Shown here: positions 21,634 through 59,800 of the stretch, in pieces
Position numbering within the stretch: position 1 is the first letter of the stretch
Layout: each line of letters opens with the position of its first letter
From: Escherichia coli
Lineage (GTDB): Bacteria; Pseudomonadota; Gammaproteobacteria; Enterobacterales; Enterobacteriaceae
Length of the DNA: 64,000 nucleotides
Strand: one strand, 5' to 3'
Assembly (NCBI RefSeq): GCF_001677475.2
Contig: NZ_CP015229.1
Notes under the pieces: model-generated
The model's database searches: none
Told to the model about the DNA's origin: nothing
The model's input: the letters and a program-made list of their open reading frames with translations, nothing else
Program-made: the position numbers and the translations under genes

Positions 21634-22103
21634 TGAATCCACTGAAAGCCGGTGATATCGCACCGAAATTTAGCTTGCCGGATCAAGACGGAGAACAAGT
21701 TAATTTGACCGACTTCCAGGGACAGCGTGTTCTGGTTTATTTCTACCCGAAAGCCATGACCCCCGGCTGTACCGTACAGGCCTGCGGCTTACGCGATAAC
21801 ATGGATGAGTTGAAAAAAGCGGGCGTTGATGTGCTGGGTATCAGCACCGATAAACCCGAAAAACTCTCCCGTTTTGCGGAAAAAGAGCTGCTTAACTTTA
21901 CGCTCCTGTCTGATGAGGACCACCAGGTGTGCGAACAATTCGGCGTCTGGGGTGAAAAGTCCTTCATGGGCAAAACCTACGATGGTATTCATCGCATCAG
22001 CTTCCTGATTGACGCTGATGGCAAAATCGAACATGTCTTTGACGATTTCAAAACCAGCAATCACCACGACGTTGTGCTGAACTGGCTGAAAGAACACGCC
22101 TGA
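21633..22103 (+). CDS. bcp: thiol peroxidase Bcp (peroxiredoxin)
   Basis: 156-aa ORF with peroxiredoxin active-site PGCT motif; ATG overlaps the gcvR stop by 1 nt. Confidence 0.94.
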   Translation: MNPLKAGDIAPKFSLPDQDGEQVNLTDFQGQRVLVYFYPKAMTPGCTVQACGLRDNMDELKKAGVDVLGISTDKPEKLSRFAEKELLNFTLLSDEDHQVCEQFGVWGEKSFMGKTYDGIHRISFLIDADGKIEHVFDDFKTSNHHDVVLNWLKEHA

Positions 22104-22298
22104 TTACTTTGCTCCATTCCGTGCTGGCTGCGCTTGCGGTCAGCACACCTCACTTCTCGTGATCAAGATCACATTCTTGCTTTCCCCTGCGACACGGGTG
22201 TCGAATTCATTTTTTGCTGAACGTTAATGACCATCATTTTTGTACCGTTCAGAATACAGTTAATTCATAACTTATTGAATATATTAAATTAATAAGAC

Positions 22299-22314
22299 TG
22301 GCATCCTTTATGCA
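22299..22314 (+). promoter_or_regulatory. sigma-54 (-24/-12) promoter of the hyf operon
   Basis: TGGCAT-ccttta-TGCA, GG and GC at canonical spacing, ~40 bp upstream of hyfA ATG; operon ends with sigma-54 activator gene hyfR. Confidence 0.7.
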
Positions 22315-22355
22315 ATATGAAATGCAATGTTTCATATCATTTTCAAGGAGCCGAC

Positions 22356-22973
22356 ATGAACCGCTTTGTGGTGGCCGAACCACTGTGGTGTACAGGATGT
22401 AATACCTGTCTCGCTGCCTGTTCGGACGTGCATAAAACGCAAGGTTTACAGCAACACCCGCGCCTGGCCCTGGCGAAGACGTCAACACTCACTGCCCCTG
22501 TCGTGTGTCATCACTGTGAGGAAGCCCCTTGCCTGCAGGTCTGCCCGGTCAATGCCATCTCCCAGAGGGATGATGCGATCCAACTCAACGAAAGCCTCTG
22601 TATTGGCTGCAAGCTTTGCGCCGTGGTCTGCCCATTTGGCGCAATCAGCGCTTCAGGAAGCCGTCCGGTGAATGCCCCTGCGCAATATGTTTTTCAGGCT
22701 GACGGCTCACTCAAAGACGGCGAAGAAAACGCGCCGACCCAACATGCTTTGCTGCGCTGGGAACCGGGTGTCCAGACCGTCGCGGTGAAATGCGACCTGT
22801 GTGATTTCTTGCCAGAAGGTCCGGCCTGCGTTCGCGCTTGCCCGAATCATGCGTTACGGCTGATCACCGACGATAGCCTGCAACGTCAGATGAAAGAAAA
22901 ACAGCGCCTTGCCGCAAGCTGGTTTGCCAATGGCGGGGAGGATCCCCTTTCCCTCACTCAGGAGCAACGCTAA
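22356..22973 (+). CDS. hyfA: hydrogenase-4 ferredoxin-type Fe-S subunit
   Basis: ORF 22317..22973 trimmed to ATG 22356 with AAGGAG RBS (205 aa); multiple CxxCxxCxxxCP motifs. Confidence 0.92.
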   Translation: MNRFVVAEPLWCTGCNTCLAACSDVHKTQGLQQHPRLALAKTSTLTAPVVCHHCEEAPCLQVCPVNAISQRDDAIQLNESLCIGCKLCAVVCPFGAISASGSRPVNAPAQYVFQADGSLKDGEENAPTQHALLRWEPGVQTVAVKCDLCDFLPEGPACVRACPNHALRLITDDSLQRQMKEKQRLAASWFANGGEDPLSLTQEQR

Positions 22974-24991
22974 TGGATGCCCTGCAATTATTAACCTGGT
23001 CGCTGATCCTCTATCTGTTTGCCAGTCTGGCTTCGCTGTTTTTACTCGGTCTGGACAGACTGGCTATTAAGCTTTCCGGCATCACATCGCTGGTGGGTGG
23101 CGTGATTGGCATCATCAGCGGAATTACGCAATTACATGCAGGCGTAACTTTAGTCGCCCGTTTTGCCACGCCTTTTGACTTTGCCGATTTAACCCTGCGA
23201 ATGGATAGCCTCTCGGCATTTATGGTGCTGGTTATCTCCTTGCTGGTGGTGGTTTGTTCGCTCTATTCATTGACTTATATGCGCGAATACGAGGGTAAAG
23301 GCGCGGCGGCGATGGGCTTCTTTATGAATCTTTTCATCGCATCGATGGTTGCCCTGCTGGTGATGGACAACGCTTTTTGGTTCATCGTGCTGTTTGAAAT
23401 GATGTCGCTGTCTTCCTGGTTTTTGGTCATTGCCAGGCAGGATAAAACGTCGATCAACGCTGGCATGCTCTACTTTTTTATCGCCCACGCCGGATCGGTG
23501 CTGATTATGATCGCTTTCTTGCTGATGGGGCGCGAAAGCGGCAGCCTCGATTTTGCCAGTTTCCGCACGCTTTCACTTTCTCCGGGGCTGGCGTCGGCGG
23601 TGTTCCTGCTGGCCTTTTTCGGTTTTGGCGCGAAAGCCGGGATGATGCCGTTGCACAGCTGGTTGCCACGCGCTCACCCTGCCGCACCATCGCACGCTTC
23701 GGCGTTGATGTCTGGCGTAATGGTCAAAATCGGTATTTTCGGCATCCTGAAAGTAGCGATGGATCTGCTGGCGCAAACGGGTTTGCCGCTGTGGTGGGGC
23801 ATTCTGGTGATGGCGATCGGCGCAATCTCCGCGCTCCTGGGCGTGCTGTATGCGCTGGCGGAACAGGATATCAAACGGCTGCTGGCCTGGAGTACCGTCG
23901 AAAACGTCGGCATTATTTTGCTGGCGGTCGGTGTGGCGATGGTCGGTCTGTCACTGCACGACCCGCTGCTCACCGTTGTTGGACTGCTCGGCGCGCTGTT
24001 TCATCTGCTCAACCATGCGCTGTTCAAAGGGCTGCTGTTTCTCGGCGCGGGTGCGATTATTTCGCGTTTGCATACCCACGACATGGAAAAAATGGGGGCA
24101 CTGGCGAAACGGATGCCGTGGACAGCCGCAGCATGCCTGATTGGTTGCCTCGCGATATCAGCCATTCCTCCGCTGAATGGTTTTATCAGCGAATGGTACA
24201 CCTGGCAGTCGCTGTTCTCACTAAGTCGTGTGGAAGCCGTAGCGCTACAACTTGCGGGTCCTATTGCTATGGTGATGCTGGCAGTCACTGGTGGGCTGGC
24301 AGTAATGTGCTTCGTCAAAATGTACGGTATTACTTTCTGTGGAGCGCCGCGCAGTACACACGCTGAAGAGGCACAGGAAGTGCCAAATACGATGATCGTC
24401 GCCATGCTACTGCTCGCGGCACTCTGCGTATTCATTGCGCTTAGTGCCAGTTGGCTGGCACCGAAGATAATGCACATTGCCCATGCGTTTACCAATACCC
24501 CTCCCGTCACTGTCGCCAGCGGAATAGCACTTGTACCCGGCACGTTTCATACACGGGTCACTCCCTCATTACTGTTGCTGTTACTACTGGCGATGCCTTT
24601 GCTGCCTGGCCTTTACTGGCTGTGGTGTCGTTCGCGCCGCGCAGCGTTTCGTCGCACAGGAGATGCCTGGGCATGCGGCTACGGCTGGGATAATGCGATG
24701 GCCCCGTCAGGCAATGGCGTGATGCAGCCGCTGCGTGTGGTCTTTTATGCGCTATTTCGTCTACGACAACAGCTCGACCCTACGCTGAGGCTGAACAAAG
24801 GTCTTGCGCACGTCACCGCCAGGGCTCAGAGCACAGAACCCTTCTGGGATGAGCGGGTGATCCGCCCCATCGTGAGCGCCACCCAACGGCTGGCCAAAGA
24901 AATACAGCATCTGCAAAGCGGCGACTTTCGTCTCTATTGCCTGTATGTGGTCGCCGCACTGGTTGTGCTGCTAATCGCTATTGCCGTCTAA
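22973..24991 (+). CDS. hyfB: hydrogenase-4 membrane subunit (NuoL/MrpA-like antiporter)
   Basis: 672-aa polytopic membrane ORF; 1-nt overlap with hyfA stop. Confidence 0.93.
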   Translation: MDALQLLTWSLILYLFASLASLFLLGLDRLAIKLSGITSLVGGVIGIISGITQLHAGVTLVARFATPFDFADLTLRMDSLSAFMVLVISLLVVVCSLYSLTYMREYEGKGAAAMGFFMNLFIASMVALLVMDNAFWFIVLFEMMSLSSWFLVIARQDKTSINAGMLYFFIAHAGSVLIMIAFLLMGRESGSLDFASFRTLSLSPGLASAVFLLAFFGFGAKAGMMPLHSWLPRAHPAAPSHASALMSGVMVKIGIFGILKVAMDLLAQTGLPLWWGILVMAIGAISALLGVLYALAEQDIKRLLAWSTVENVGIILLAVGVAMVGLSLHDPLLTVVGLLGALFHLLNHALFKGLLFLGAGAIISRLHTHDMEKMGALAKRMPWTAAACLIGCLAISAIPPLNGFISEWYTWQSLFSLSRVEAVALQLAGPIAMVMLAVTGGLAVMCFVKMYGITFCGAPRSTHAEEAQEVPNTMIVAMLLLAALCVFIALSASWLAPKIMHIAHAFTNTPPVTVASGIALVPGTFHTRVTPSLLLLLLLAMPLLPGLYWLWCRSRRAAFRRTGDAWACGYGWDNAMAPSGNGVMQPLRVVFYALFRLRQQLDPTLRLNKGLAHVTARAQSTEPFWDERVIRPIVSATQRLAKEIQHLQSGDFRLYCLYVVAALVVLLIAIAV

Positions 24992-25001
24992 GGAAATCAC
25001 C

Positions 25002-25949
25002 ATGAGACAAACTCTTTGCGACGGATATCTGGTCATTTTTGCGTTAGCACAGGCCGTGATTCTGCTGGTGCTAACCCCGCTTTTTACGGGTATTTCCCGG
25101 CAGATACGCGCGCGAATGCACTCCCGTCGCGGACCGGGGATCTGGCAGGATTATCGCGATATCCACAAACTGTTTAAACGCCAGGAAGTTGCGCCAACAT
25201 CTTCAGGTCTGATGTTCCGCCTGATGCCGTGGGTATTAATCAGCAGCATGCTGGTGCTGGCGATGGCCCTACCACTATTTATTACTGTTTCCCCTTTTGC
25301 GGGCGGCGGCGATCTGATCACCCTTATCTATCTTCTTGCCCTGTTTCGTTTTTTCTTTGCTCTTTCCGGGCTGGATACCGGAAGCCCGTTTGCGGGAGTC
25401 GGTGCCAGTCGCGAGTTGACGCTCGGCATTCTGGTCGAACCCATGCTCATTCTCTCACTGCTGGTATTGGCGCTGATAGCGGATTCCACGCATATCGAGA
25501 TGATCAGCAAGACGCTGGCGACGGGCTGGAACTCGCCGCTAACCACCGTACTGGCGTTACTGGCCTGTGGTTTTGCCTGCTTCATTGAGATGGGAAAAAT
25601 TCCCTTTGATGTTGCTGAAGCAGAACAGGAATTACAGGAAGGCCCGCTGACCGAATATTCCGGTGCCGGGCTGGCGTTGGCGAAATGGGGGCTGGGGCTG
25701 AAACAGGTCGTGATGGCAGCACTGTTTGTGGCCCTGTTTCTGCCCTTTGGGCGCGCGCAAGAACTTTCTCTCGCCTGCCTGCTGACTTCTCTTGTCGTTA
25801 CGCTGCTCAAGGTTTTGCTGATTTTTGTTCTGGCCTCTATCGCAGAAAACACGCTGGCACGCGGGCGTTTTTTACTCATTCACCATGTGACCTGGCTTGG
25901 CTTCAGCCTTGCTGCGCTTGCCTGGGTCTTCTGGTTAACCGGTCTGTAA
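25002..25949 (+). CDS. hyfC: hydrogenase-4 membrane subunit (NuoH-like)
   Basis: ORF 24981..25949 trimmed to ATG 25002 (315 aa). Confidence 0.9.
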   Translation: MRQTLCDGYLVIFALAQAVILLVLTPLFTGISRQIRARMHSRRGPGIWQDYRDIHKLFKRQEVAPTSSGLMFRLMPWVLISSMLVLAMALPLFITVSPFAGGGDLITLIYLLALFRFFFALSGLDTGSPFAGVGASRELTLGILVEPMLILSLLVLALIADSTHIEMISKTLATGWNSPLTTVLALLACGFACFIEMGKIPFDVAEAEQELQEGPLTEYSGAGLALAKWGLGLKQVVMAALFVALFLPFGRAQELSLACLLTSLVVTLLKVLLIFVLASIAENTLARGRFLLIHHVTWLGFSLAALAWVFWLTGL

Positions 25950-25965
25950 GGAGCACTGACGGAAT

Positions 25966-27405
25966 ATGGAAAATCTTGCTCTGACGACGTTATTGCTGCC
26001 TTTTATCGGCGCACTGGTCGTTTCGTTTTCGCCACAACGTCGGGCCGCCGAATGGGGGATTTTGTTCGCCGCGCTGACCACGCTGTGCATGTTGTCGCTG
26101 ATCTCCGCGTTTTATCAGGCCGATAAAGTTGCCGTCACGTTGACGTTGGTCAACGTGGGGGATGTGGCGTTGTTTGGCCTGGTCATTGATCGCGTGAGTA
26201 CGCTGATTCTGTTTGTGGTGGTGTTCCTCGGTTTGCTGGTCACGATCTACTCCACGGGTTATCTGACGGATAAAAATCGCGAACACCCGCATAACGGCAC
26301 GAATCGTTATTACGCATTTTTGCTGGTGTTTATCGGCGCGATGGCGGGACTGGTACTCTCCTCGACGCTGCTCGGTCAGTTGTTGTTTTTTGAAATTACG
26401 GGCGGCTGCTCCTGGGCGTTGATCAGTTATTACCAGAGCGATAAAGCGCAGCGTTCAGCACTAAAAGCGTTGCTTATCACTCATATCGGTTCGTTGGGGT
26501 TGTATCTTGCCGCCGCCACGCTGTTTTTGCAGACCGGAACGTTTGCGCTCAGCGCGATGAGCGAGTTACACGGCGACGCACGCTATCTGGTTTATGGTGG
26601 CATCCTGTTTGCCGCGTGGGGGAAATCGGCCCAGCTACCGATGCAAGCGTGGCTACCGGATGCAATGGAAGCGCCAACACCGATCAGCGCCTATCTCCAC
26701 GCCGCATCGATGGTGAAAGTGGGCGTTTACATTTTTGCCCGTGCCATTATCGACGGCGGCAATATCCCGCATGTGATTGGCGGCGTTGGCATGGTTATGG
26801 CACTGGTCACCATTCTTTATGGCTTCCTGATGTATTTGCCACAGCAGGATATGAAGCGGTTGCTGGCCTGGTCGACCATCACTCAACTTGGCTGGATGTT
26901 CTTCGGCTTGTCGCTCTCCATCTTCGGCTCGCGGCTGGCGCTGGAGGGTAGCATCGCCTACATCGTCAACCACGCATTCGCTAAAAGCCTGTTTTTCCTT
27001 GTAGCAGGTGCACTGAGTTACAGCTGCGGCACGCGCTTGTTGCCGCGTCTGCGTGGCGTATTGCACACCCTGCCATTGCCTGGCGTGGGTTTCTGCGTGG
27101 CAGCGCTGGCAATTACCGGCGTGCCGCCGTTCAACGGCTTCTTCAGTAAATTCCCGCTGTTTGCTGCCGGTTTTGCGTTGTCAGTGGAGTACTGGATCCT
27201 GCTGCCCGCCATGATTCTGCTGATGACTGAATCGGTCGCTAGTTTCGCCTGGTTTATTCGCTGGTTTGGTCGCGTCGTGCCTGGCAAACCTAGCGAGGCC
27301 GTCGCCGATGCCACACCGCTACCAGGGTCAATGCGCCTGGTGTTGATTGTACTGATTGTGATGTCGCTGATTTCCAGCGTAATCGCCGCGACCTGGTTGC
27401 AGTAA
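25966..27405 (+). CDS. hyfD: hydrogenase-4 membrane subunit (NuoM/N-like antiporter)
   Basis: 479-aa polytopic membrane ORF. Confidence 0.93.
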   Translation: MENLALTTLLLPFIGALVVSFSPQRRAAEWGILFAALTTLCMLSLISAFYQADKVAVTLTLVNVGDVALFGLVIDRVSTLILFVVVFLGLLVTIYSTGYLTDKNREHPHNGTNRYYAFLLVFIGAMAGLVLSSTLLGQLLFFEITGGCSWALISYYQSDKAQRSALKALLITHIGSLGLYLAAATLFLQTGTFALSAMSELHGDARYLVYGGILFAAWGKSAQLPMQAWLPDAMEAPTPISAYLHAASMVKVGVYIFARAIIDGGNIPHVIGGVGMVMALVTILYGFLMYLPQQDMKRLLAWSTITQLGWMFFGLSLSIFGSRLALEGSIAYIVNHAFAKSLFFLVAGALSYSCGTRLLPRLRGVLHTLPLPGVGFCVAALAITGVPPFNGFFSKFPLFAAGFALSVEYWILLPAMILLMTESVASFAWFIRWFGRVVPGKPSEAVADATPLPGSMRLVLIVLIVMSLISSVIAATWLQ

Positions 27406-27416
27406 GGAGATGATGA

Positions 27417-28067
27417 ATGACCGGTTCTATGATCGTAAATAATCTGGCGGGACTGATGATGCTGACATCACTGTTTGTGATTAGCGTCAAAAGCTATCGC
27501 CTGTCATGCGGATTTTACGCCTGCCAGTCACTGGTGCTGGTGTCTATTTTCGCCACCCTCTCGTGCCTGTTCGCCGCAGAGCAACTGCTGATCTGGTCCG
27601 CCAGCGCCTTTATCACCAAAGTGCTGCTGGTACCGTTAATCATGACTTACGCTGCACGAAATATTCCCCAGAACATCCCGGAAAAAGCGTTATTCGGTCC
27701 GGCAATGATGGCACTGCTCGCGGCGTTAATTGTCCTGCTTTGCGCATTTGTCGTTCAGCCCGTGAAGCTACCGATGGCTACCGGGCTGAAACCGGCGCTG
27801 GCGGTGGCGTTAGGTCATTTTCTGCTTGGCCTGCTGTGCATTGTCAGCCAGCGCAATATCCTGCGGCAAATTTTTGGTTACTGCCTGATGGAAAACGGCT
27901 CCCATCTGGTGCTGGCGCTTCTAGCCTGGCGTGCACCGGAACTGGTGGAAATTGGTATCGCTACCGACGCCATCTTCGCCGTCATTGTAATGGTGTTACT
28001 GGCAAGAAAAATATGGCGTACCCACGGCACGCTGGACGTGAACAACTTGACCGCGCTGAAGGGATAA
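27417..28067 (+). CDS. hyfE: hydrogenase-4 membrane subunit
   Basis: 216-aa hydrophobic ORF. Confidence 0.92.
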
Positions 28068-28071
28068 TGAG

Positions 28072-29652
28072 ATGAGTTATTCTGTGATGTTCGCTTTACT
28101 CCTGCTCACGCCGCTACTTTTTTCGCTGCTCTGTTTTGCCTGCCGGAAACGGGGACACTCTGCGACTCGCACGGTGACAGTACTACATGGCTTAGGGATC
28201 ACACTGCTGCTGATTCTGGCACTGTGGGTGGTCCAAACCGCCGCTGATGCGGGAGAAATATTCGCTGCGGGACTGTGGCTTCACATTGATGGCCTGGGCG
28301 GTTTGTTCCTCGCCATTCTTGGTGTGATTGGCTTTCTCACCGGTGTTTACTCGATTGGCTACATGCGTCATGAAGTGGCACACGGCGAGCTTTCACCCGT
28401 TACGCTGTGCGATTACTACGGTTTCTTCCATCTGTTTTTGTTCACCATGCTGCTGGTTGTTACCAGCAATAACCTGATTGTGATGTGGGCGGCAATCGAA
28501 GCCACCACCTTAAGCTCGGCGTTTCTGGTAGGCATTTACGGTCAGCGTTCATCGCTGGAAGCTGCATGGAAGTACATCATTATTTGTACTGTTGGTGTCG
28601 CTTTTGGTCTGTTCGGTACCGTGCTGGTATACGCCAACGCCGCCAGCGTTATGCCGCAGGCAGAAATGGCGATATTCTGGAGCGAGGTTCTTAAGCAATC
28701 GTCCTTGCTTGACCCAACATTAATGCTGTTGGCCTTTGTGTTTGTGCTAATTGGCTTTGGCACCAAAACCGGGCTTTTTCCCATGCACGCCTGGCTGCCG
28801 GATGCTCACAGTGAAGCGCCGAGTCCGGTCAGCGCCCTGCTCTCCGCCGTATTGCTGAACTGCGCGCTGTTGGTGCTTATTCGCTATTACATCATTATTT
28901 GCCAGGCCATCGGCAGCGATTTCCCCAACCGGTTGTTGCTCATCTTCGGCATGTTGTCGGTTGCCGTGGCGGCATTTTTCATTCTGGTACAGCGGGACAT
29001 TAAGCGTCTGCTGGCGTACTCCAGCGTGGAGAACATGGGACTGGTCGCGGTGGCGATAGGCATTGGCGGGCCGCTGGGAATTTTTGCCGCGCTGCTGCAC
29101 ACCTTAAACCACAGTCTGGCAAAAACGCTGTTGTTCTGCGGTTCCGGCAATGTACTGCTCAAGTACGGCACGCGCGATCTCAACGTCGTCTGTGGGATGC
29201 TCAAAATCATGCCATTTACCGCCGTGTTGTTTGGCGGCGGTGCGCTGGCGCTGGCCGGGATGCCGCCCTTCAACATTTTTCTTAGCGAATTTATGACCGT
29301 TACCGCCGGACTGGCGCGTAATCATCTGCTGCTTATCGTCCTGCTGTTATTGCTGTTAACGCTGGTGCTGGCGGGCCTGGTACGGATGGCTGCGCGGGTG
29401 TTAATGGCGAAACCGCCGCAGGCCGTTAACCGGGGTGAACTTGGCTGGTTGACCACCTCGCCAATGGTGATTCTGCTGGTCATGATGCTGGCGATGGGAA
29501 CGCATATTCCACAACCTGTCATCAGGATCCTGGCTGGCGCTTCCACTATAGTCCTCTCAGGGACGCACGACCTGCCTGCACAACGTAGCACCTGGCATGA
29601 TTTTTTGCCTTCAGGCACCGCATCTGTTTCGGAGAAACACAGTGAACGTTAA
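28072..29652 (+). CDS. hyfF: hydrogenase-4 membrane subunit (NuoN/M-like antiporter)
   Basis: 526-aa polytopic membrane ORF. Confidence 0.93.
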
Positions 29653-31357
29653 TTCATCGTCAAATCGTGGCGAAGCGATTCTCGCCGCCCTGAAAACGCA
29701 GTTCCCCGGCGCGGTGCTGGATGAAGAGCGACAAACGCCTGAACAGGTCACCATTACGGTGAAAATCAATCTGCTGCCTGACGTTGTGCATTATCTTTAT
29801 TATCAACATGATGGCTGGCTTCCAGTCCTGTTTGGCAACGACGAGCGGACACTTAACGGTCATTACGCAGTTTATTATGCCCTTTCTATGGAAGGGGCCG
29901 AAAAATGCTGGATCGTGGTGAAGGCACTGGTCGATGCCGACAGTCGGGAGTTTCCGTCAGTCACACCGCGCGTCCCTGCCGCGGTCTGGGGCGAGCGAGA
30001 AATTCGCGATATGTACGGGCTGATTCCGGTTGGCCTGCCGGATCAGCGTCGGCTGGTGTTGCCCGATGACTGGCCGGAAGATATGCATCCGCTGCGCAAA
30101 GACGCGATGGATTATCGACTGCGCCCTGAACCGACGACTGATACCGAAACGTATCCGTTTATCAACGAGGGCAACAGCGATGCGCGGGTGATCCCTGTCG
30201 GCCCGCTGCATATCACCTCCGATGAACCAGGTCACTTCCGCTTGTTTGTGGATGGCGAGCAAATTGTCGATGCTGATTACCGCCTGTTTTATGTCCATCG
30301 CGGCATGGAGAAACTGGCAGAAACGCGGATGGGCTACAACGAAGTGACCTTCTTGTCGGACCGCGTGTGTGGGATTTGCGGTTTTGCCCACAGTGTGGCC
30401 TATACCAACTCGGTTGAAAATGCACTGGGGATTGAGGTGCCGCAACGAGCGCATACTATTCGCTCGATTCTGCTGGAAGTCGAACGGCTGCATAGTCATT
30501 TGCTCAACCTTGGCCTCTCCTGCCATTTTGTTGGTTTTGATACCGGCTTTATGCAATTTTTCCGCGTGCGGGAAAAGTCGATGACGATGGCGGAATTGCT
30601 GACCGGGTCGCGTAAAACCTACGGTCTGAATCTGATTGGTGGTGTTCGCCGCGATATTCTCAAAGAGCAACGTCTGCAAACGCTGAAACTGGTGCACGAG
30701 ATGCGCGCCGACGTGTCGGAGCTGGTAGAGATGCTGCTTGCCACGCCGAATATGGAACAACGCACTCAGGGCATTGGCATTCTCGACCGACAAATCGCCC
30801 GTGATTATAGCCCCGTAGGGCCGCTGATCCGCGGCAGTGGCTTTGCCCGTGATTTGCGCTTTGATCACCCCTACGCCGACTACGGCAATATTCCAAAAAC
30901 GCTGTTTACCTTTACCGGCGGCGATGTCTTCTCCCGCGTGATGGTCCGTGTCAAAGAGACGTTTGATTCGCTGGCAATGCTGGAATTTGCCCTCGACAAC
31001 ATGCCAGATACCCCACTGCTGACCGAAGGCTTTAGCTATAAACCTCACGCATTCGCGCTGGGCTTTGTTGAAGCGCCACGTGGTGAAGACGTGCACTGGA
31101 GCATGCTCGGTGATAACCAAAAATTGTTCCGCTGGCGCTGTCGTGCCGCCACCTACGCCAACTGGCCAGTGCTACGTTACATGCTGCGCGGCAATACCGT
31201 TTCTGACGCACCGCTGATTATCGGTAGCCTTGATCCCTGCTACTCCTGTACCGACCGTGTGACGCTGGTTGATGTGCGCAAGCGCCAGTCAAAAACCGTG
31301 CCGTATAAAGAGATCGAACGCTACGGCATTGATCGTAACCGTTCGCCGCTGAAGTAA
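29642..31357 (+). CDS. hyfG: hydrogenase-4 [NiFe] large catalytic subunit
   Basis: ORF 29597..31357; preferred start GTG 29642 (GGAG RBS 7 nt upstream, overlaps hyfF end); NuoC/NuoD-like fusion with N-terminal CxxC and C-terminal DPCxxC Ni-binding motifs. Exact start uncertain. Confidence 0.9.
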
Positions 31358-31366
31358 GGACAGAAG

Positions 31367-31912
31367 ATGCTGAAGTTACTGAAAACTATTATGCGCGCCG
31401 GAACCGCGACGGTGAAATATCCCTTCGCGCCACTGGAAGTCAGCCCAGGCTTTCGCGGGAAACCGGACCTGATGCCCAGCCAATGTATTGCCTGCGGTGC
31501 CTGCGCCTGTGCTTGTCCGGCAAATGCGCTGACTATCCAGGCCGACGACCAGCAAAATACGCGCACCTGGCAGCTCTATCTGGGGCGTTGTATTTACTGC
31601 GGACGTTGTGAAGAAGTGTGCCCGACCAGAGCCATTCAGCTTACCAATAACTTTGAACTGACCGTCACCAATAAAGCCGATCTCTATACCCGCGCGACGT
31701 TCCATCTACAACGTTGCAGCCGTTGCGAACGCCCGTTTGCCCCGCAAAAAACCGTCGCACTGGCTGCAGAACTGTTGGCACAGCAACAAAATGCACCACA
31801 AAACCGCGAAATGTTACGGGCGCAAGCGAGCGTCTGCCCGGAATGCAAACAACGCGCGACGCTGATCAACGACGACACAGATGAACCGCTGGTGGCTAAG
31901 GAGCAGCTATGA
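31367..31912 (+). CDS. hyfH: hydrogenase-4 Fe-S subunit (NuoI-like)
   Basis: 181-aa ORF with two CxxCxxCxxxCP motifs. Confidence 0.93.
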
Positions 31913-32667
31913 GTCCAGTGCTTACACAACATGTCAGCCAGCCCATCACGCTGGACGAGCAAACGCAAAAGATGAAGCAGCATTTGTTACAGGATATACG
32001 TCGCTCGGCCTACGTTTATCGCGTCGATTGCGGCGGCTGCAACGCCTGCGAAATCGAAATTTTTGCCGCCATCACACCCGTATTCGACGCAGAACGTTTT
32101 GGCATTAAGGTTGTTTCATCACCGCGTCACGCCGATATTTTGTTATTTACTGGCGCAGTCACCCGGGCGATGCGTATGCCTGCACTTCGGGCATATGAGT
32201 CTGCCCCCGATCATAAAATCTGTGTTTCCTACGGCGCATGCGGTATCGGCGGCGGTATTTTCCACGATCTTTACAGCGTCTGGGGCGGCAGCGACACCAT
32301 TGTCCCCATTGATGTTTGGATCCCCGGCTGCCCGCCAACACCGGCCGCCACCATTCACGGTTTCGCCGTGGCGCTCGGTTTGCTGCAACAGAAGATTCAC
32401 GCGGAGGATTATCGCGATCCCACCGGGGTGACCATGCAACCGCTGTGGCCGCAGATCCCGCCATCACAGCGTATCGCCATTGAGCGAGAAGCGAGGCGGC
32501 TGGCGGGCTATCGTCAGGGGCGAGAAATTTGCGATCGGCTCCTGCGCCATTTAAGCGACGATCCTACAGGAAATCGGGTTAACACCTGGTTGCGCGAAGC
32601 CGACGATCCGCGTCTCAATAGTATCGTTCAGCAACTCTTTCGCGTTCTCCGGGGGTTACATGGCTGA
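31909..32667 (+). CDS. hyfI: hydrogenase-4 small subunit (NuoB-like)
   Basis: 252-aa ORF overlapping hyfH stop by 4 nt; NuoB-like cysteines. Confidence 0.93.
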
Positions 32668-33073
32668 GGAGTGCAGGGAAATTGTTTTCTGGACGCTGCG
32701 AAAAAAATTTATCGCCAGTAGCGACGAGATGCCGGAACACAGCTCCCAAGTAATGTATTACTCGTTGGCTATCGGTCATCACGTTGGCGTGATTGATTGT
32801 CTGAATGTCGCCTTCCGCTGCCCACTGACGGAATACGAAGATTGGCTTGCACTGGTCGAAGAGGAGCAAGCCCGACGTAAGATGCTGGGGGTGATGACTT
32901 TTGGTGAGATTGTTATTGACACCAGCCACACCGCCCTGTTGACCCGGGCATTCGCGCCACTGGCGGATGACGCGACGTCTATGTGGCAGGCGCGTAGCAT
33001 TCAATTCATTCATCTGTTGGATGAAATTGTGCAGGAACCGGCCATCTATCTGATGGCCAGAAAAATTGCGTGA
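32660..33073 (+). CDS. hyfJ: hydrogenase-4 maturation/accessory protein (HycH-like)
   Basis: 137-aa ORF overlapping hyfI end. Confidence 0.9.
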
Positions 33074-33102
33074 GAAGGATTTCTCATTAATAAGGACTGT
33101 TG

Positions 33103-35115
33103 ATGGCTATGTCAGACGAGGCGATGTTTGCCCCGCCGCAAGGAATAACAATTGAAGCGGTAAACGGAATGCTCGCGGAGCGGTTAGCGCAGAAACACGG
33201 CAAGGCGTCTTTATTACGCGCCTTCATCCCGCTGCCGCCGCCGTTCAGCCCGGTACAACTTATTGAACTGCATGTTCTCAAAAGCAACTTCTATTACCGC
33301 TACCATGATGATGGCAGCGATGTGACGGCAACAACAGAGTATCAGGGTGAGATGGTCGATTATTCGCGCCACGCCGTCCTTCTCGGCAGTAGTGGAATGG
33401 CGGAGCTACGCTTTATTCGCACCCACGGCAGTCGTTTTACTCCCCAGGATTGCACACTGTTTAACTGGCTGGCACACATAATCACTCCGGTTCTGCAATC
33501 ATGGCTCAATGATGAAGAACAGCAGGTGGCGCTGCGTTTGCTGGAGAAAGATCGCGATCATCATCGGGTACTGGTGGATATCACTAATGCAGTGTTGTCA
33601 CATCTTGATCTCGACGATCTGATCGCTGACGTCGCTCGTGAGATCCATCATTTTTTCGGTCTGGCTTCAGTCAGTATGGTACTGGGCGATCATCGAAAGA
33701 ACGAGAAGTTCAGCCTGTGGTGCAGCGATCTTTCTGCCTCACATTGTGCGTGTCTGCCACGCTGTATGCCTGGCGACAGTGTATTGCTGACACAAACGCT
33801 ACAAACCCGACAACCGACCTTGACGCACCGTGCAGACGATCTGTTTCTCTGGCAACGCGACCCGTTATTACTCTTACTTGCATCTAACGGCTGCGAATCT
33901 GCGCTCCTGATACCGCTTACCTTTGGCAACCATACACCGGGTGCATTGTTGCTGGCGCATACCTCTTCCACTCTCTTTAGTGAGGAAAACTGCCAGCTAC
34001 TACAACACATAGCCGATCGCATCGCTATTGCCGTTGGCAATGCCGATGCCTGGCGCAGCATGACCGATTTGCAGGAAAGCTTGCAGCAAGAAAACCACCA
34101 GCTTAGCGAGCAGCTCCTTTCGAATCTGGGCGTCGGTGACATTATCTATCAAAGCCAGGCAATGGAAGACCTGCTCCAGCAGGTAGATATTGTGGCGAAG
34201 AGCGACAGTACGGTGTTGATTTGTGGTGAAACCGGAACCGGCAAAGAGGTGATCGCCAGAGCGATCCATCAACTTAGCCCACGACGCGACAAGCCACTGG
34301 TCAAAATCAACTGCGCTGCCATCCCCGCCAGTCTTCTGGAAAGTGAGTTATTCGGTCATGACAAAGGGGCATTTACTGGTGCGATTAATACCCATCGTGG
34401 TCGTTTTGAAATTGCCGATGGCGGCACGTTGTTTCTCGATGAAATTGGCGATCTGCCGTTAGAACTTCAGCCTAAACTGCTGCGCGTATTGCAGGAACGG
34501 GAGATTGAGCGTCTCGGCGGGAGTAGAACGATCCCGGTAAATGTCAGAGTCATTGCCGCCACCAACCGTGATTTGTGGCAAATGGTTGAAGATCGCCAGT
34601 TTCGCAGCGATCTCTTTTATCGCCTGAATGTCTTCCCACTGGAACTGCCGCCACTGCGCGACCGTCCGGAAGATATCCCTCTTTTAGCAAAGCATTTCAC
34701 GCAAAAAATGGCGCGCCATATGAATCGCGCAATTGACGCCATCCCGACCGAGGCGCTACGCCAGTTGATGTCGTGGGACTGGCCGGGCAACGTGCGCGAG
34801 CTGGAAAACGTGATTGAGCGAGCGGTACTACTGACTCGCGGTAACAGTCTGAATTTACATCTTAATGTCCGACAAAGCCGTTTACTGCCGACGCTAAATG
34901 AAGATTCAGCGCTTCGCAGTTCAATGGCGCAGTTACTGCACCCGACGACGCCAGAGAATGACGAAGAAGAACGTCAGCGCATTGTTCATGTATTGCGAGA
35001 AACCAATGGCATTGTTGCCGGGCCCCGTGGCGCGGCGACGCGATTAGGAATGAAGCGCACCACGCTGCTGTCACGAATGCAGCGGCTGGGGATCTCGGTT
35101 CGCGAGGTGTTGTAA
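33103..35115 (+). CDS. hyfR: sigma-54-dependent transcriptional activator of hyf operon
   Basis: 670 aa from ATG 33103; GAF-like N-terminus, AAA+ sigma-54 interaction domain ([14 protein letters not shown]), C-terminal HTH. Confidence 0.93.
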
Positions 35116-35136
35116 TCTGTTTTTGCAGGAGTATGC

Positions 35137-35985
35137 ATGAGAAACAAACTCTCTTTCGACTTGCAGTTGAGCGCCAGAAAAGCGGCAATCGCTGAACGGA
35201 TTGCCGCCCATAAAATTACCCGCAGCAAAGTGTCGGTCTTTTTAATGGCGATGTCCGCAGGCGTGTTTATGGCGATCGGATTTACTTTTTACCTTTCCGT
35301 TATCGCCGATGCCCCGTCTTCACAGGCATTAACCCATCTGGTGGGCGGCCTTTGCTTTACACTTGGCTTTATTTTGCTGGCGGTTTGCGGCACCAACCTG
35401 TTCACCTCGTCGGTAATGACGGTAATGGCAAAAAGTCGGGGCGTTATTAGTTGGCGAACTTGGCTGATTAATGCACTTCTGGTGGCCTGCGGTAATCTGG
35501 CAGGTATTGCCTGTTTCAGTTTGTTAATCTGGTTTTCCGGGCTGGTGATGAGTGAAAACGCGATGTGGGGAGTCGCGGTTTTACACTGCGCCGAGGGCAA
35601 AATGCATCATACATTTACTGAATCTGTCAGCCTCGGCATTATGTGCAATCTGATGGTTTGCCTGGCGCTGTGGATGAGTTATTGCGGGCGTTCATTATGC
35701 GACAAAATCGTCGCCATGATTTTGCCCATCACCCTGTTTGTCGCCAGTGGCTTTGAGCACTGTATCGCCAATTTGTTTGTGATTCCGTTCGCCATTGCCA
35801 TTCGCCATTTCGCCCCTCCCCCCTTCTGGCAACTGGCTCACAGTAGCGCAGACAATTTTCCGGCACTGACGGTCAGCCATTTTATTACCGCCAATCTGCT
35901 CCCGGTGATGCTGGGTAATATTATCGGCGGTGCAGTGCTGGTGAGTATTTGTTATCGGGCTATTTATTTACGTCAGGAACCCTGA
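35137..35985 (+). CDS. focB: formate channel (FNT family)
   Basis: 282-aa polytopic membrane ORF with formate/nitrite transporter-family sequence. Confidence 0.92.
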   Translation: MRNKLSFDLQLSARKAAIAERIAAHKITRSKVSVFLMAMSAGVFMAIGFTFYLSVIADAPSSQALTHLVGGLCFTLGFILLAVCGTNLFTSSVMTVMAKSRGVISWRTWLINALLVACGNLAGIACFSLLIWFSGLVMSENAMWGVAVLHCAEGKMHHTFTESVSLGIMCNLMVCLALWMSYCGRSLCDKIVAMILPITLFVASGFEHCIANLFVIPFAIAIRHFAPPPFWQLAHSSADNFPALTVSHFITANLLPVMLGNIIGGAVLVSICYRAIYLRQEP

Positions 35986-35990
35986 AAAAT

Positions 35991-36018
35991 CAGCCCGGCG
36001 AAACAGTTCGTCGGGCTG
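35991..36018. terminator. intergenic stem-loop between convergent focB and perM
   Basis: cagcccggcgaaacagttcgtcgggctg inverted repeat; no strong T-tract, so termination efficiency uncertain. Confidence 0.5.
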
Positions 36019-36022
36019 AAGA

Positions 36023-37084
36023 TTAATCTTGCGCGATTTGCCCATCGGGCCAGGCGTGAATCACGGCTTTGATCAGCGTCGCCAACGGAATGGCGAAGAA
36101 TACGCCCCAGAATCCCCACAAACCACCGAAGATCACCACCGATAAAATAATCACCAGCGGATGCAGGTTAACCGCTTCGGAGAACAACACCGGCACTAGC
36201 AGGTTGCCGTCCAGCGCCTGAATGATCAGATACACCGCGAAGCAGCTCCAGAATTCCGTGCCAGCACCAAACTGGAATAGCGCCACGCCAACCACCGGAA
36301 TGGTCACCACAAATGCGCCAATGTACGGAATAAGTACCGAGAAGCCGACCAGCACAGCCAGCAGCAGCGAATAGTTCAGCCCGAAGAGTAAGAATCCCAG
36401 CCAGGTGGCGATCCCCACCACGATCATCTCCAGCACTTTGCCGCGGATATAGTTGGTGATTTGTTGATTCATCTCCTTCCATACCTGTCCTGCCAGTCCA
36501 CGGTTACGTGGCAGCACCCGGCGAACGGCGTTCAGCATCTGCTCTTTGTCTTTCAGCAGGAAGAAGACCATCAATGGTACCAGCACCAGATAGACGGCAA
36601 TGGTCAGCAAACCGACCAGCGAGGCGAGGGAAATTTTCACCACCGAATCGCCCATGGTCAGCATCCGACTGCGCATATTTTCGGCCATTGCATCAATAAT
36701 GCCCGCGTCCATTAACGCCGGATAGCGGCGCGGCAACGTGGCGGCAAAGTCAGAAAGCTTATTGAGCATCCCCGGCATATCGCGGATTAAGTAGATGCCC
36801 TGTTGCCAGGCGATAGGCAGTACCACGAACGCCATCAGTAGCAATATACCGACGAAAACCACCAATACAATCGACGTCGCCCAGCGGCGGGAGCAGCCAA
36901 TAGATTGCAGGCGCACGGTTGGCCATTCCAGCAAATAGGCCAGCACAATAGCCACCAGCAACGGAGCAAGCAGGCCACTAAAGAAAAAGATAATGCCAAA
37001 TCCGGCAACTAAAATAACCAGCAAGGCAATCGCTTCCGGGTCGCTAAAACGGCGGCGATACCATTGCATCAACATTTCGAGCAT
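36023..37084 (-). CDS. perM: AI-2E family permease PerM
   Basis: 353-aa polytopic membrane ORF; K-12 position and length. Confidence 0.9.
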   Translation of the reverse strand: MLEMLMQWYRRRFSDPEAIALLVILVAGFGIIFFFSGLLAPLLVAIVLAYLLEWPTVRLQSIGCSRRWATSIVLVVFVGILLLMAFVVLPIAWQQGIYLIRDMPGMLNKLSDFAATLPRRYPALMDAGIIDAMAENMRSRMLTMGDSVVKISLASLVGLLTIAVYLVLVPLMVFFLLKDKEQMLNAVRRVLPRNRGLAGQVWKEMNQQITNYIRGKVLEMIVVGIATWLGFLLFGLNYSLLLAVLVGFSVLIPYIGAFVVTIPVVGVALFQFGAGTEFWSCFAVYLIIQALDGNLLVPVLFSEAVNLHPLVIILSVVIFGGLWGFWGVFFAIPLATLIKAVIHAWPDGQIAQD

Positions 37085-55404: not shown

Positions 55405-56811
<1,407 letters not shown>

Positions 56812-56878
56812 GCCGATATGATGCGCCAGCATCGCATCCGGCACTGGCTCCCAGGCCACGCCAGATGCGCCATGCTGG
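56812..56878. repeat. REP-like palindromic element at xseA 3' junction
   Basis: gccgatatgatgcgccagcatcgcatccggcac... fills the gap between the xseA stop and the stop of the convergent giant gene. Confidence 0.6.
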
Positions 56879-59800
56879 TTACTGGAAGCAGGTAACCAGA
56901 CCCGGTTTATTCATTAGCGTGATACTACAATCCTGTGCTCCAGTGCCTTCGTCCATCCCACACTGTTGAGAGGACAAATAAGGAAAACTTGGTGAAGACG
57001 GCCATCCCAGTGAATTAAAAACAGTATGCAACAACTCTAATTCATTGTATGTCGGTGCATTTTCTATGCTGCCACACTGCCTTGCGATATCCCATTTACT
57101 GGCATCAATGATATGTGCAGAAGCCCAGTTTTCGTAGTTAATAAACGGTGAGGATACGGGATTAGCCCCGGACGGCAATTCCGTCGTTAACAACGGTCGA
57201 TGTAGCGATTTACCATTCACCACTACCGTGTCTGCCATATGTCCCCAAAAGTGCGCCGAGGAAACATTCGGGCTGGTTGGCACCGTAAAAATAGCGTCCA
57301 GCGTGTCTGTCGCGGAAGCGTAATTAGCCAGAGTAACCGTCAGTGGCGTTTTATAACCAGGGGTATTATCCTGGCGGAGCGTAAAACTTGCCGTCCCATC
57401 AGCGCCTGTCATGCCACTAATGGTATTACCGCTTTCACTCAGCGTAATAGCCGAACCAGATAACGGCTGAACGATGAGATCGTCCATCGCCACCACATCA
57501 CCATACAACGTTGCCCCAGCGTTACGCGGCGATGCCTCACCACGTTTCAAAGTAAACTCCACATTCGGCACCGTATTCCCGGCGCTGTCTTTCACCGTCA
57601 CGGTAACGGGCATGGCTTCGCCTTTTTTCACTTTCGCCGCCTGGCTGTCAGCATCAAACGCTGTTGAGGTCAGTGTGACGCTGGAAACCGTCGCGCGCGC
57701 AGACACCAGGCACGCCTGATAAGCGGTATTAACATTCAATGTCGTCAAGCCATTTTTCATATCGAGCGACTGATTTTTGCCATCTGTAGTCTTATCCTGC
57801 GCCCACCAGCCATAATAAACTGACCAGCCAGTTTCCGTCGTAAAGGTGTTATTGGGATAACGTTGATACAGTGACTTCATATCGCTGAGCAACGGTTGTC
57901 GTGCTTCTTCACAGGGGCTGAGGCTGGCATTTGCTTTGGTTGTTGCTGAGAAATAGGGCCAGTCCTCATTATTGTTACTGATTTTATTCACCCCGGAGGT
58001 CGATGGCAGCTCTTTCCACAATTTCGGTCGTTCAAAGACGGTTCCATTTGCCGCTGTCACCGTTTCTGGCATATGGCCCCAGTAGTTGGCATCCGGAGTG
58101 TCAGGGCTGGTGACCACGGTAAATATCAGGTCCAGGTTTGACGTGATCTGCGGATCTTGTGCAAGCGAGACCGTAAACGGCGTTGCCAGGCCAGTGGTGT
58201 TGTTTTGCGTAACATTGAACGTCACAGTGCCATCACTGCCGGTAAAGCCAAGCCATTTTGCCGTATCCTGAGCAAAGGAAATGCTGGCTGCTGTCGGTGT
58301 GACGACATTTACAATAAGATCATCTGCCGAAGTAGATGAGGGCTTATTCCCTGTACGGTTTTTCGACTGCGCCCGCTGAAGCGTCACGCTCTCACCACTC
58401 ACCAGGTTGCCATTTTGGTCTTTTACTGTCACGACTAACGGGATTGTCTCGCCCTTTTTCGCCGATGCCGAAGGTGTGCCACCGTTGCTGGCGGTTTTCG
58501 TCTCATCAAATGCGGCTGACGTGAGAGTCACGCTTGATGATAAAGCGTGAGGCTGCGTCAGACAAAGCATCAGAGCAGACGGATAGAGAGAAGATGAAGG
58601 TTGTCCTGTTTTCAGGTTAATGACCTGATAATACCAGGACGTGCCACTAAGAGTAAGCTCATAAGTCCACCAGTTTCCGGCTGTTGTCGGCACCCCCAGA
58701 TCTGTCGTTATCGCCCCGTTAGGGTGATCGTTATAAAGCCCCTGCAACTCGCTGAGGCGCGGTTGATATTCCAGTGGGCAATCTGCCGTCGCTTTTTGAG
58801 TGTTGGATATATATGACCATGTCTCATTATTACCATTTACCGAGCTCCCCGAAGTTGCTTCCGCTGCCAGTAATGGGCGCTTGAAGGTCACGCCTGCCGA
58901 GCTGGTAAACGTTTCCGGCATATGGCCCCAGTATTTCGCTTTTGGCGAATCCGGGCTGGTTATCACCGTGAAAATGACATCCAGCGTGGCGCTTTTTGAG
59001 GTGTCGCGCATCAATGTTGCAGTGAGCGGGGTTGCGAACCCATAACTGCCGTTTTGGCTGACCTCAAACGTAGCTTTACCATCGCTTCCTGTCTTCAGAA
59101 GAGCCTGCGTCCCATCCTCATACAAGATTGACGTTACCCCGGTAGGCTCCAAAGGCACGATGGTAAGATCATCTGCAGAGGCATTGTACGCAGCTTTAGC
59201 GCGATTCAGCGCAGTCCCACGTTTAAGGTTAAAGCTGGCACCTGGCAGTGGATTGCCTGCGCTATCTCGCACCGTAACCGTCATCGGGATAACCTCTCCC
59301 TTCTTCGCCGTTGCACTGGGCCTGCCATCATTGCTCGCCGTTTTCGTTGCATCCTCTGCCGTTGAGGTCATCTCAATAGAAGCCGCCTCTGGATGAGGGT
59401 TTACCAGGCACAGCATTAATGCCGAGGTGGTTGAAGACGCTCTTCCACTTGATCCATTTAACAGAGAAATATATTGATCGTACCACTTACCCGCATATGC
59501 CACCACGTCGTAAGCCCACCAGTAGCTATTCACTGGAATACCCAGATCGGTCTTTATCGCACGACTTGGATGTTCGTCGTACAATGCCTGGAGTTCGCTT
59601 AACAGCGGTTGATAATGTACATCGCACCCGCTTTTATCTGCATCCCCCTTTGTTGCCGATTTCAACAATCCCCATGTTTCATTGTCTTCTATGACTCCAG
59701 ATTCTGACGATGTTTCGCTCTTGAGTAGTGGACGCCTGAAGGCAATCCCGGAACGCGTAGTGAACGTTTCCGCCATATGCCCCCAGTAACTTGCCAGGGG

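Follow-up and report, generated by a model that had tools for sequence, protein, structure and literature searches.

Genes and chromosomal setting of the hyf locus

The stretch of DNA that we analysed (64 kb, referred to below as the window) belongs to the chromosome of E. coli and displays the gene order purC-bamC-dapA-gcvR-bcp-hyf-yfgO-bepA. It is collinear with positions 2,578,818-2,635,526 of the chromosome of K-12 MG1655, with about 98% identity. The hyf locus, hyfABCDEFGHIJR-focB, occupies positions 22356-35985 and is collinear with that of K-12 (Table 1). Its HyfA-J set is encoded in order and includes hyfD, hyfE and hyfF, which have no hyc counterpart, thus matching K-12 b2481-b2490, as in Hyf-type (FHL-2) group 4 [NiFe]-hydrogenase loci. 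The twelve proteins show 97-100% amino-acid identity to those of K-12. An earlier note on this DNA, made from the sequence alone, had described all twelve reading frames as intact, with tight or overlapping junctions; our analysis confirms both points. All frames are open (12 of 12) and the distances between consecutive genes range from -11 to +29 nt (in order: -1, 10, 16, 11, 4, -11, 9, -4, -8, 29 and 21 nt), with stop/start overlaps at hyfA/B, hyfF/G, hyfH/I and hyfI/J. Comparison with K-12 indicates that the true start of hyfA is the ATG at 22356, instead of the position proposed by the ORF finder (22317). The bcp gene is located on the same strand as hyfA and ends 252 nt upstream of it.

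Table 1. Genes and sequence features of the hyf locus (positions in the window; negative positions are relative to the predicted transcription start)
Feature	Position	Strand	Description
CRP-like site CGTGATCAAGATCACA	22158..22173	.	About -160; one mismatch to TGTGA-N6-TCACA
Candidate enhancer palindrome CGACA-CGGG-TGTCG	22190..22203	.	Centre at -128
Invariant block TGACCATCATTTTTGT	22228..22243	.	-97 to -82, between the palindrome and the IHF-like site
IHF-like site TAACTTATTGAAT	22268..22280	-	-57 to -45; one mismatch to the reverse complement of WATCAANNNNTTR
Putative sigma-54 -24/-12 element CTGGCATCCTTTATGCA	22298..22314	+	GG at 22300-22301, GC at 22312-22313; core identical to K-12 OS23
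Predicted transcription start	22325..22326	+	Motif centre plus 19; 31 nt from the ATG, the distance tabulated for K-12
Shine-Dalgarno sequence AAGGAG of hyfA	22345..22350	+	Conserved in the Escherichia/Citrobacter/Kosakonia spacer alignment
hyfA	22356..22973	+	205 aa, 4Fe-4S ferredoxin-type subunit, multi-cluster ferredoxin
hyfB	22973..24991	+	672 aa, antiporter-like membrane subunit
hyfC	25002..25949	+	315 aa
hyfD	25966..27405	+	479 aa, extra antiporter-like subunit that hyc lacks
hyfE	27417..28067	+	216 aa
hyfF	28072..29652	+	526 aa, antiporter-like subunit
hyfG	29642..31357	+	571 aa, GTG start, [NiFe] large subunit, full-length allele
48-bp segment deleted in K-12	30797..30844	+	16 codons; direct repeat GCCCGTGATT (10 bp) at 30797-30806 and 30845-30854
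hyfH	31367..31912	+	181 aa
hyfI	31909..32667	+	252 aa, small subunit
hyfJ	32660..33073	+	137 aa, HycH-family maturation protein
hyfR	33103..35115	+	670 aa, sigma-54 enhancer-binding protein (GAF, AAA+, HTH)
focB	35137..35985	+	282 aa, formate channel; Form_Nir_trans domain

HyfG harbors the Pfam domains Complex1_49kDa, Complex1_30kDa and NiFeSe_Hases and aligns with HycE from the formate hydrogenlyase structure (7z0s_E), with an E value of 3e-292. Its metal ligands are present, RVCGIC at 241 (RxCGxC) and DPCYSC at 531 (DPCxxC), both CxxC pairs being kept. HyfR carries a GAF domain, a Sigma54_activat domain (E value of 5e-75), an AAA lid and a weak match to HTH_8, together with a Walker A motif (GETGTGKE at 375) and a GAFTGA motif at 422. 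These domains agree with the end of the locus as previously described, i.e. a sigma-54 activator gene followed by focB. In contrast, the proposal that the twelve genes form one operon is less firm, since RT-PCR in K-12 reportedly gave no hyfJ-hyfR transcript. The 29-nt spacer between hyfJ and hyfR contains neither a sigma-70 promoter nor a terminator-like feature (a scan of 32600-36100 gave weak terminator-like matches elsewhere only). Hence, as far as the sequence goes, hyfR-focB may be a separate unit or part of the same transcript.

The hyfA promoter and the hyf locus are missing from 1129 of the 5426 complete E. coli genomes, and bcp/gcvR are present in 5425. No Rfam family reached its gathering score within the whole window. 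Collinearity with K-12 stops 76 nt short of the end of xseA, the part beyond it being 56730-64000. This part encodes a portion of an 'adhesion domain-containing protein' of very large size, which K-12 does not have at this position. The protein is full-length in 936 of the 5426 complete genomes, with a best identity of 96.4%. This site adjacent to xseA is the same as that of the Salmonella CS54 island.

The -24/-12 element upstream of hyfA

The sequence TGGCATCCTTTATGCA (TGGCAT-CCTTTA-TGCA) is found at 22299-22314 on the plus strand. Its GG and GC doublets are 10 nt apart, in canonical -24/-12 register with a start at 22325, and it ends 41 nt before the hyfA ATG. String, register and distance are therefore those of the earlier note, which had reported TGGCAT-N6-TGCA with canonical GG/GC spacing about 40 bp upstream of hyfA. 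The pattern TGGCAY-N5-WTGCW occurs once in the window, versus 0.57 expected by chance. The note had suggested scoring with a sigma-54 position weight matrix (PWM), which we built from 41 intergenic E. coli sigma-54 ChIP-seq sites (PMC4591121), hyfA being excluded. The element CTGGCATCCTTTATGCA obtained 15.0 bits, the best score among 127,968 window positions, and falls within the range of the validated sites (14th from the bottom of the 41). Yet 70% of Markov-simulated 64-kb sequences contain a score at least as high, and the motif taken alone is not significant window-wide in 64 kb. Its -12 element is ATGCA and not TTGCA, which also counts against it. Its significance comes from its placement, in a 252-nt intergenic spacer, on the correct strand and 41 nt before a start codon. 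The case for a predicted promoter is thus carried by position, by identity to K-12 and by its retention ahead of hyfA in about ten other genera.

The second-best PWM match of the window, ATGGCGCAGTTACTGCA (14.2 bits), lies within the 3'-terminal part of hyfR, at 34924-34940 on the plus strand. A distance of 196 nt separates its end from the downstream focB ATG, and its sequence is the same in K-12. Since Bonocora et al. (PMC4591121) do not list it in their ChIP-seq data, it is probably not bound. Another feature, the inverted repeat ATATGAAA-TGCAATG-TTTCATAT at 22315-22337, straddles the predicted start. An RNA structure was rejected as an explanation for this repeat, since its upstream arm is untranscribed and the 31-nt leader shows no RNA fold better than shuffled sequences. 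In the spacer alignment, its sequence is not kept in other genera. It may be a DNA-level operator or may be without significance.

From TGGCAT through the hyfA ATG, the window is base-for-base the same as K-12. The nearest difference is found at -27 (C in the window, A in K-12), and eight more substitutions are located farther upstream in the spacer. In K-12, primer extension reportedly placed the start 30 nt upstream of hyfA, and hyfA is said to depend on sigma-54, FhlA and formate at low pH. Furthermore, plasmid-borne HyfR reportedly activates strongly, and HyfR is said to bind the promoter region. ChIP-seq in K-12 revealed a peak, OS23, with the motif ATGGCATCCTTTATGCA and a predicted start 31 nt from hyfA; the authors mark this site as having experimental confirmation in EcoCyc (Bonocora et al. 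2015, PMC4591121). In gSELEX experiments (Shimada et al. 2021, PMC8743547), the signal of the bcp-hyfA spacer reached 92% of the strongest peak when the RpoN holoenzyme was used by itself, and this spacer became the strongest peak (100%) once NtrC was added.

The 211-nt promoter region is found in 4297 of the 5426 complete E. coli genomes, nearly always with at least 95% identity. Alignment of five divergent E. coli alleles revealed that the -24/-12 element and all upstream blocks described below are invariant, substitutions being found only between blocks. In one genome, E. coli Res13-Lact-PEB14-36 (L052, about 250-280), the hyfA promoter contains a tandem duplication of 14 bp (CATCCTTTATGCAA). 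One intact TGGCATCCTTTATGCA remains there, shifted 14 nt farther from the start region.

Conservation was also examined outside the genus. A HyfA scan with one genome per species returned 45 loci, none of them from Escherichia, the closest outgroup being Citrobacter (71% HyfA identity). Every enterobacterial hyf-type locus (i.e. with HyfD/E/F) has a sigma-54 PWM match of 11-19 bits located 38-83 nt upstream of hyfA. Genera with such sites are Citrobacter, Kosakonia, Atlantibacter, Sodalis, Dickeya, Morganella, Providencia, Pectobacterium and Photobacterium. No such match was found at hyc-type loci, in which another gene precedes that of the HyfA paralogue, nor at most alpha- and beta-proteobacterial loci of the scan.

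The upstream control region

The hyfA upstream regions of Escherichia, Citrobacter and Kosakonia were aligned, and several conserved blocks were delimited in the spacer. The most distal one, a CRP-like site, is invariant in the five E. coli alleles; Citrobacter carries a perfect version (TGTGA-CTAATA-TCACA) and Kosakonia a partial one. This putative site fits the CRP-cAMP requirement that has reportedly been described for hyf expression. Our literature search found nothing linking the hyf operon with CRP.

The palindrome CGACA-CGGG-TGTCG is the sole match to CGWCA-N4-TGWCG in the window, for 0.39 expected. The upstream regions of K-12 fdhF and hydN carry the same palindrome. Moreover, it is found in 21 of 37 hyfA upstream regions (500 nt), at -84 to -368 and mostly at -84 to -160, the background being 0.016 per 500 nt. 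It is therefore probably an enhancer site for FhlA or HyfR. This assignment relies on the comparison of palindromes since the published FhlA consensus (TGWC-RAWRAT-GWCA, from Proteus) fits poorly: the spacer contains no close match to it, the nearest one showing 3 mismatches and overlapping the CRP-like site. Positions 22190-22203 were also flagged by our scan as weakly terminator-like, the sole such feature after bcp. A role as bcp terminator was rejected because the Citrobacter version is a direct repeat with which no stem is possible; the recurrence of the palindrome at other formate-regulon promoters also disfavours it. Closer to bcp, a hairpin of 11 pairs, GTGCTGGCTGC-GCTT-GCGGTCAGCAC (22121-22146), lies 18 nt past the bcp stop, without a T-run after it. 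It differs from K-12 at two positions, both in the 3' arm (T for C at 22140 and C for T at 22146). This hairpin may be a transcript-end or stabilising structure of bcp.

Two other blocks separate the palindrome from the -24/-12 element. The block at 22228-22243 (TGACCATCAYTTTTGT) is the same in Escherichia, Citrobacter and Kosakonia except at one Y position, and is invariant in the five E. coli alleles; no known binding consensus could be matched to it. Sigma-54 promoters usually have an IHF site between the enhancer and the promoter. An IHF-like site was found in this interval with the generally known IHF consensus, and its Citrobacter orthologue, TAACTAATTGATT, is a perfect match to that consensus.

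Comparison with known systems

The closest known system is the K-12 promoter hyfAp with hyfABCDEFGHIJR-focB (b2481-b2492). It has the same location between bcp and yfgO, the same gene order and junctions and the same start codons, including GTG for hyfG. Besides the spacer substitutions mentioned above, it differs by a hyfG product of 555 aa. The FhlA-dependent sigma-54 promoters of hycA, hypA, fdhF and hydN share with hyfA the TGGCA-N7-TGC core and an activator of the FhlA family, and those of fdhF and hydN also have the upstream CGWCA-N4-TGWCG palindrome. Unlike these, the hyf locus has its own paralogous activator, HyfR; moreover, among the promoters compared, the conserved CRP-like site and the block at 22228-22243 are seen only at hyf.

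The FHL-2 loci of Pectobacterium atrosepticum, Proteus mirabilis and other Enterobacterales share the hyfA-J order, with hyfD/E/F, the sigma-54 site at 38-83 nt from hyfA and the palindrome farther upstream. However, these loci encode a HycI-like protease, HyfK, and their enzyme is active (Finney et al. 2020), whereas the E. coli locus lacks a protease gene and has hyfR-focB at its end.

Proposed regulation of the hyf operon

We consider, with a probability of about 95%, that positions 22298-22314 correspond to the sigma-54 (RpoN) promoter of the hydrogenase-4 operon of E. coli. RNA polymerase-sigma-54 would bind the GG (-24) and GC (-12) doublets and wait there as a closed complex. An AAA+ activator, FhlA with formate or HyfR, would bind upstream, likely at the palindrome near -128 and possibly also at the invariant block 22228-22243. 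The intervening DNA would bend, probably at the IHF-like site near -50. Hydrolysis of ATP by the activator and its GAFTGA loop would then open the promoter, with a start at about 22325, 31 nt before hyfA. Catabolite control is probably superimposed through the CRP-like site near -160. The resulting transcript would span hyfABCDEFGHIJ, possibly with hyfR-focB, and the tight or overlapping junctions may allow translational coupling. Our analysis directly shows the motif and its match to the validated promoter of K-12, the integrity of the genes, the domains of HyfR and the cross-genus conservation of promoter and palindrome. The protein assigned to each upstream block and a behavior of the source strain like that of K-12 are inferred.

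Other explanations of the motif were considered. One is that the AT-rich intergenic DNA contains, by chance, a GG-N10-GC-type motif without any role. The simulated sequences, the number of relaxed matches expected in 64 kb and the 14.2-bit look-alike in hyfR all go in this direction. However, the motif is the same as an experimentally validated promoter, for which the K-12 ChIP-seq and SELEX data refute chance. Moreover, its position is conserved across genera, and it is invariant in divergent E. coli alleles while its flanks vary, which makes a chance occurrence hardly credible. Slightly less improbable, and still very unlikely, is that a sigma-70 promoter or read-through from bcp accounts for hyfA transcription, the sigma-54 motif being incidental. 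Such read-through would be favoured by the position of bcp, on the same strand 252 nt upstream, and by the weakness of its one terminator-like feature; but this feature (22190-22203) is conserved as a sequence and not as a stem, as exemplified by the direct repeat of Citrobacter. Furthermore, a simple scan of 22050-22400 found no sigma-70-like -35/-10 hexamer pair, and a hyfA-lacZ fusion is said to be rpoN-dependent in K-12.

A more serious alternative, which we nevertheless hold to be the less likely one, concerns the output of the promoter: the site would bind the sigma-54 holoenzyme but would be largely silent, as a poised promoter, and the operon would be cryptic in ordinary conditions as in K-12, chromosomal hyfR being under-expressed and activation by FhlA being weak. 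Indeed, hyf has reportedly been called a silent operon, and strong induction is said to have needed multicopy hyfR. In addition, the K-12 hyf operon has been described as barely transcribed in laboratory conditions (Finney et al. 2020), which agrees with the statement of the earlier note that Hyf expression in E. coli is debated, and sigma-54 is known to sit inactive at promoters (Bonocora et al., PMC4591121). Since it deals with output only, a silent state is compatible with the identification of the promoter. Against it, the promoter, the enhancer palindrome and the CRP- and IHF-like blocks are conserved across genera, and the orthologous operons of Pectobacterium and Proteus are expressed and active. 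This conservation and the activity of the orthologous operons suggest a selected and functional control region. As for the promoter and the twelve-gene locus themselves, they were already known, were correctly identified in the earlier note and constitute an ordinary sigma-54/enhancer-binding-protein unit of the formate regulon.

A full-length hyfG allele

Over 56.7 kb, the window differs from K-12 by a single large feature, a segment of 48 bp in hyfG. HyfG is 571 aa long in the window versus 555 aa in K-12, the extra segment corresponding to aa 386-401. This segment, whose motif is VGPxxRGSG (VGPxxRxSG in a looser form), is present without gap in all 40 HyfG/HycE homologues examined from other genera (40 of 40). 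It is also found in HycE (ARDFSNVGPMVRASGH) and in MbhL of Pyrococcus, and the 49-kDa subunits of complex I retain its GPxLRGSG core. Its presence in all these proteins indicates that the short form of K-12 is derived. Moreover, the 48 bp are flanked by GCCCGTGATT direct repeats, a sequence signature of deletion by slippage or recombination.

Among the 4294 complete E. coli genomes carrying hyfG, about half (2179) have the full-length gene. In nearly all the others, hyfG matches as two pieces, which is consistent with the deletion; these include K-12, BL21 and an O111:H8 strain. In the literature that we searched, no description of this deletion was found.

The allele may be relevant to the activity of the enzyme. 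According to Finney et al. 2020, H2 evolution was never convincingly shown for hydrogenase-4 of E. coli K-12. These authors constructed 15 K-12 strains, with hyc or T5 promoters and with C-terminal hybrids of HyfG and HycE, and all were H2-negative. Their constructs, based on MC4100 (K-12-derived), use nt 1-1569 of hyfG, which implies that the deleted allele was used throughout. They concluded that there were extra biosynthetic problems of unknown nature, their alignment covering the last 93 residues only. From the conservation of the missing residues, we infer that the deletion may inactivate HyfG. It is also conceivable, though we only put it forward tentatively, that this in-frame deletion, carried by K-12, BL21, MC4100-type strains and about half of the hyf-bearing E. 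coli, is the biosynthetic problem behind the H2-negative K-12 strains, and that strains with the full-length gene make a functional formate hydrogenlyase-2.

Hence, the promoter and the operon add nothing new, and the full-length hyfG allele is the one point worth following up. Two decades of negative results on hydrogenase-4 came from K-12 derivatives, whose hyfG lacks 16 residues that are invariant from the archaeal membrane-bound hydrogenase to mitochondrial complex I. The full-length allele lies behind an identical promoter core and is found in about 2,200 complete genomes. The deletion in hyfG is a candidate, open to testing, for the cause of the inactivity of hydrogenase-4 in K-12, which has long lacked an explanation, and the questions of the function of hydrogenase-4 in E. 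coli and of its proton pumping may come down to a simple allele-repair experiment.
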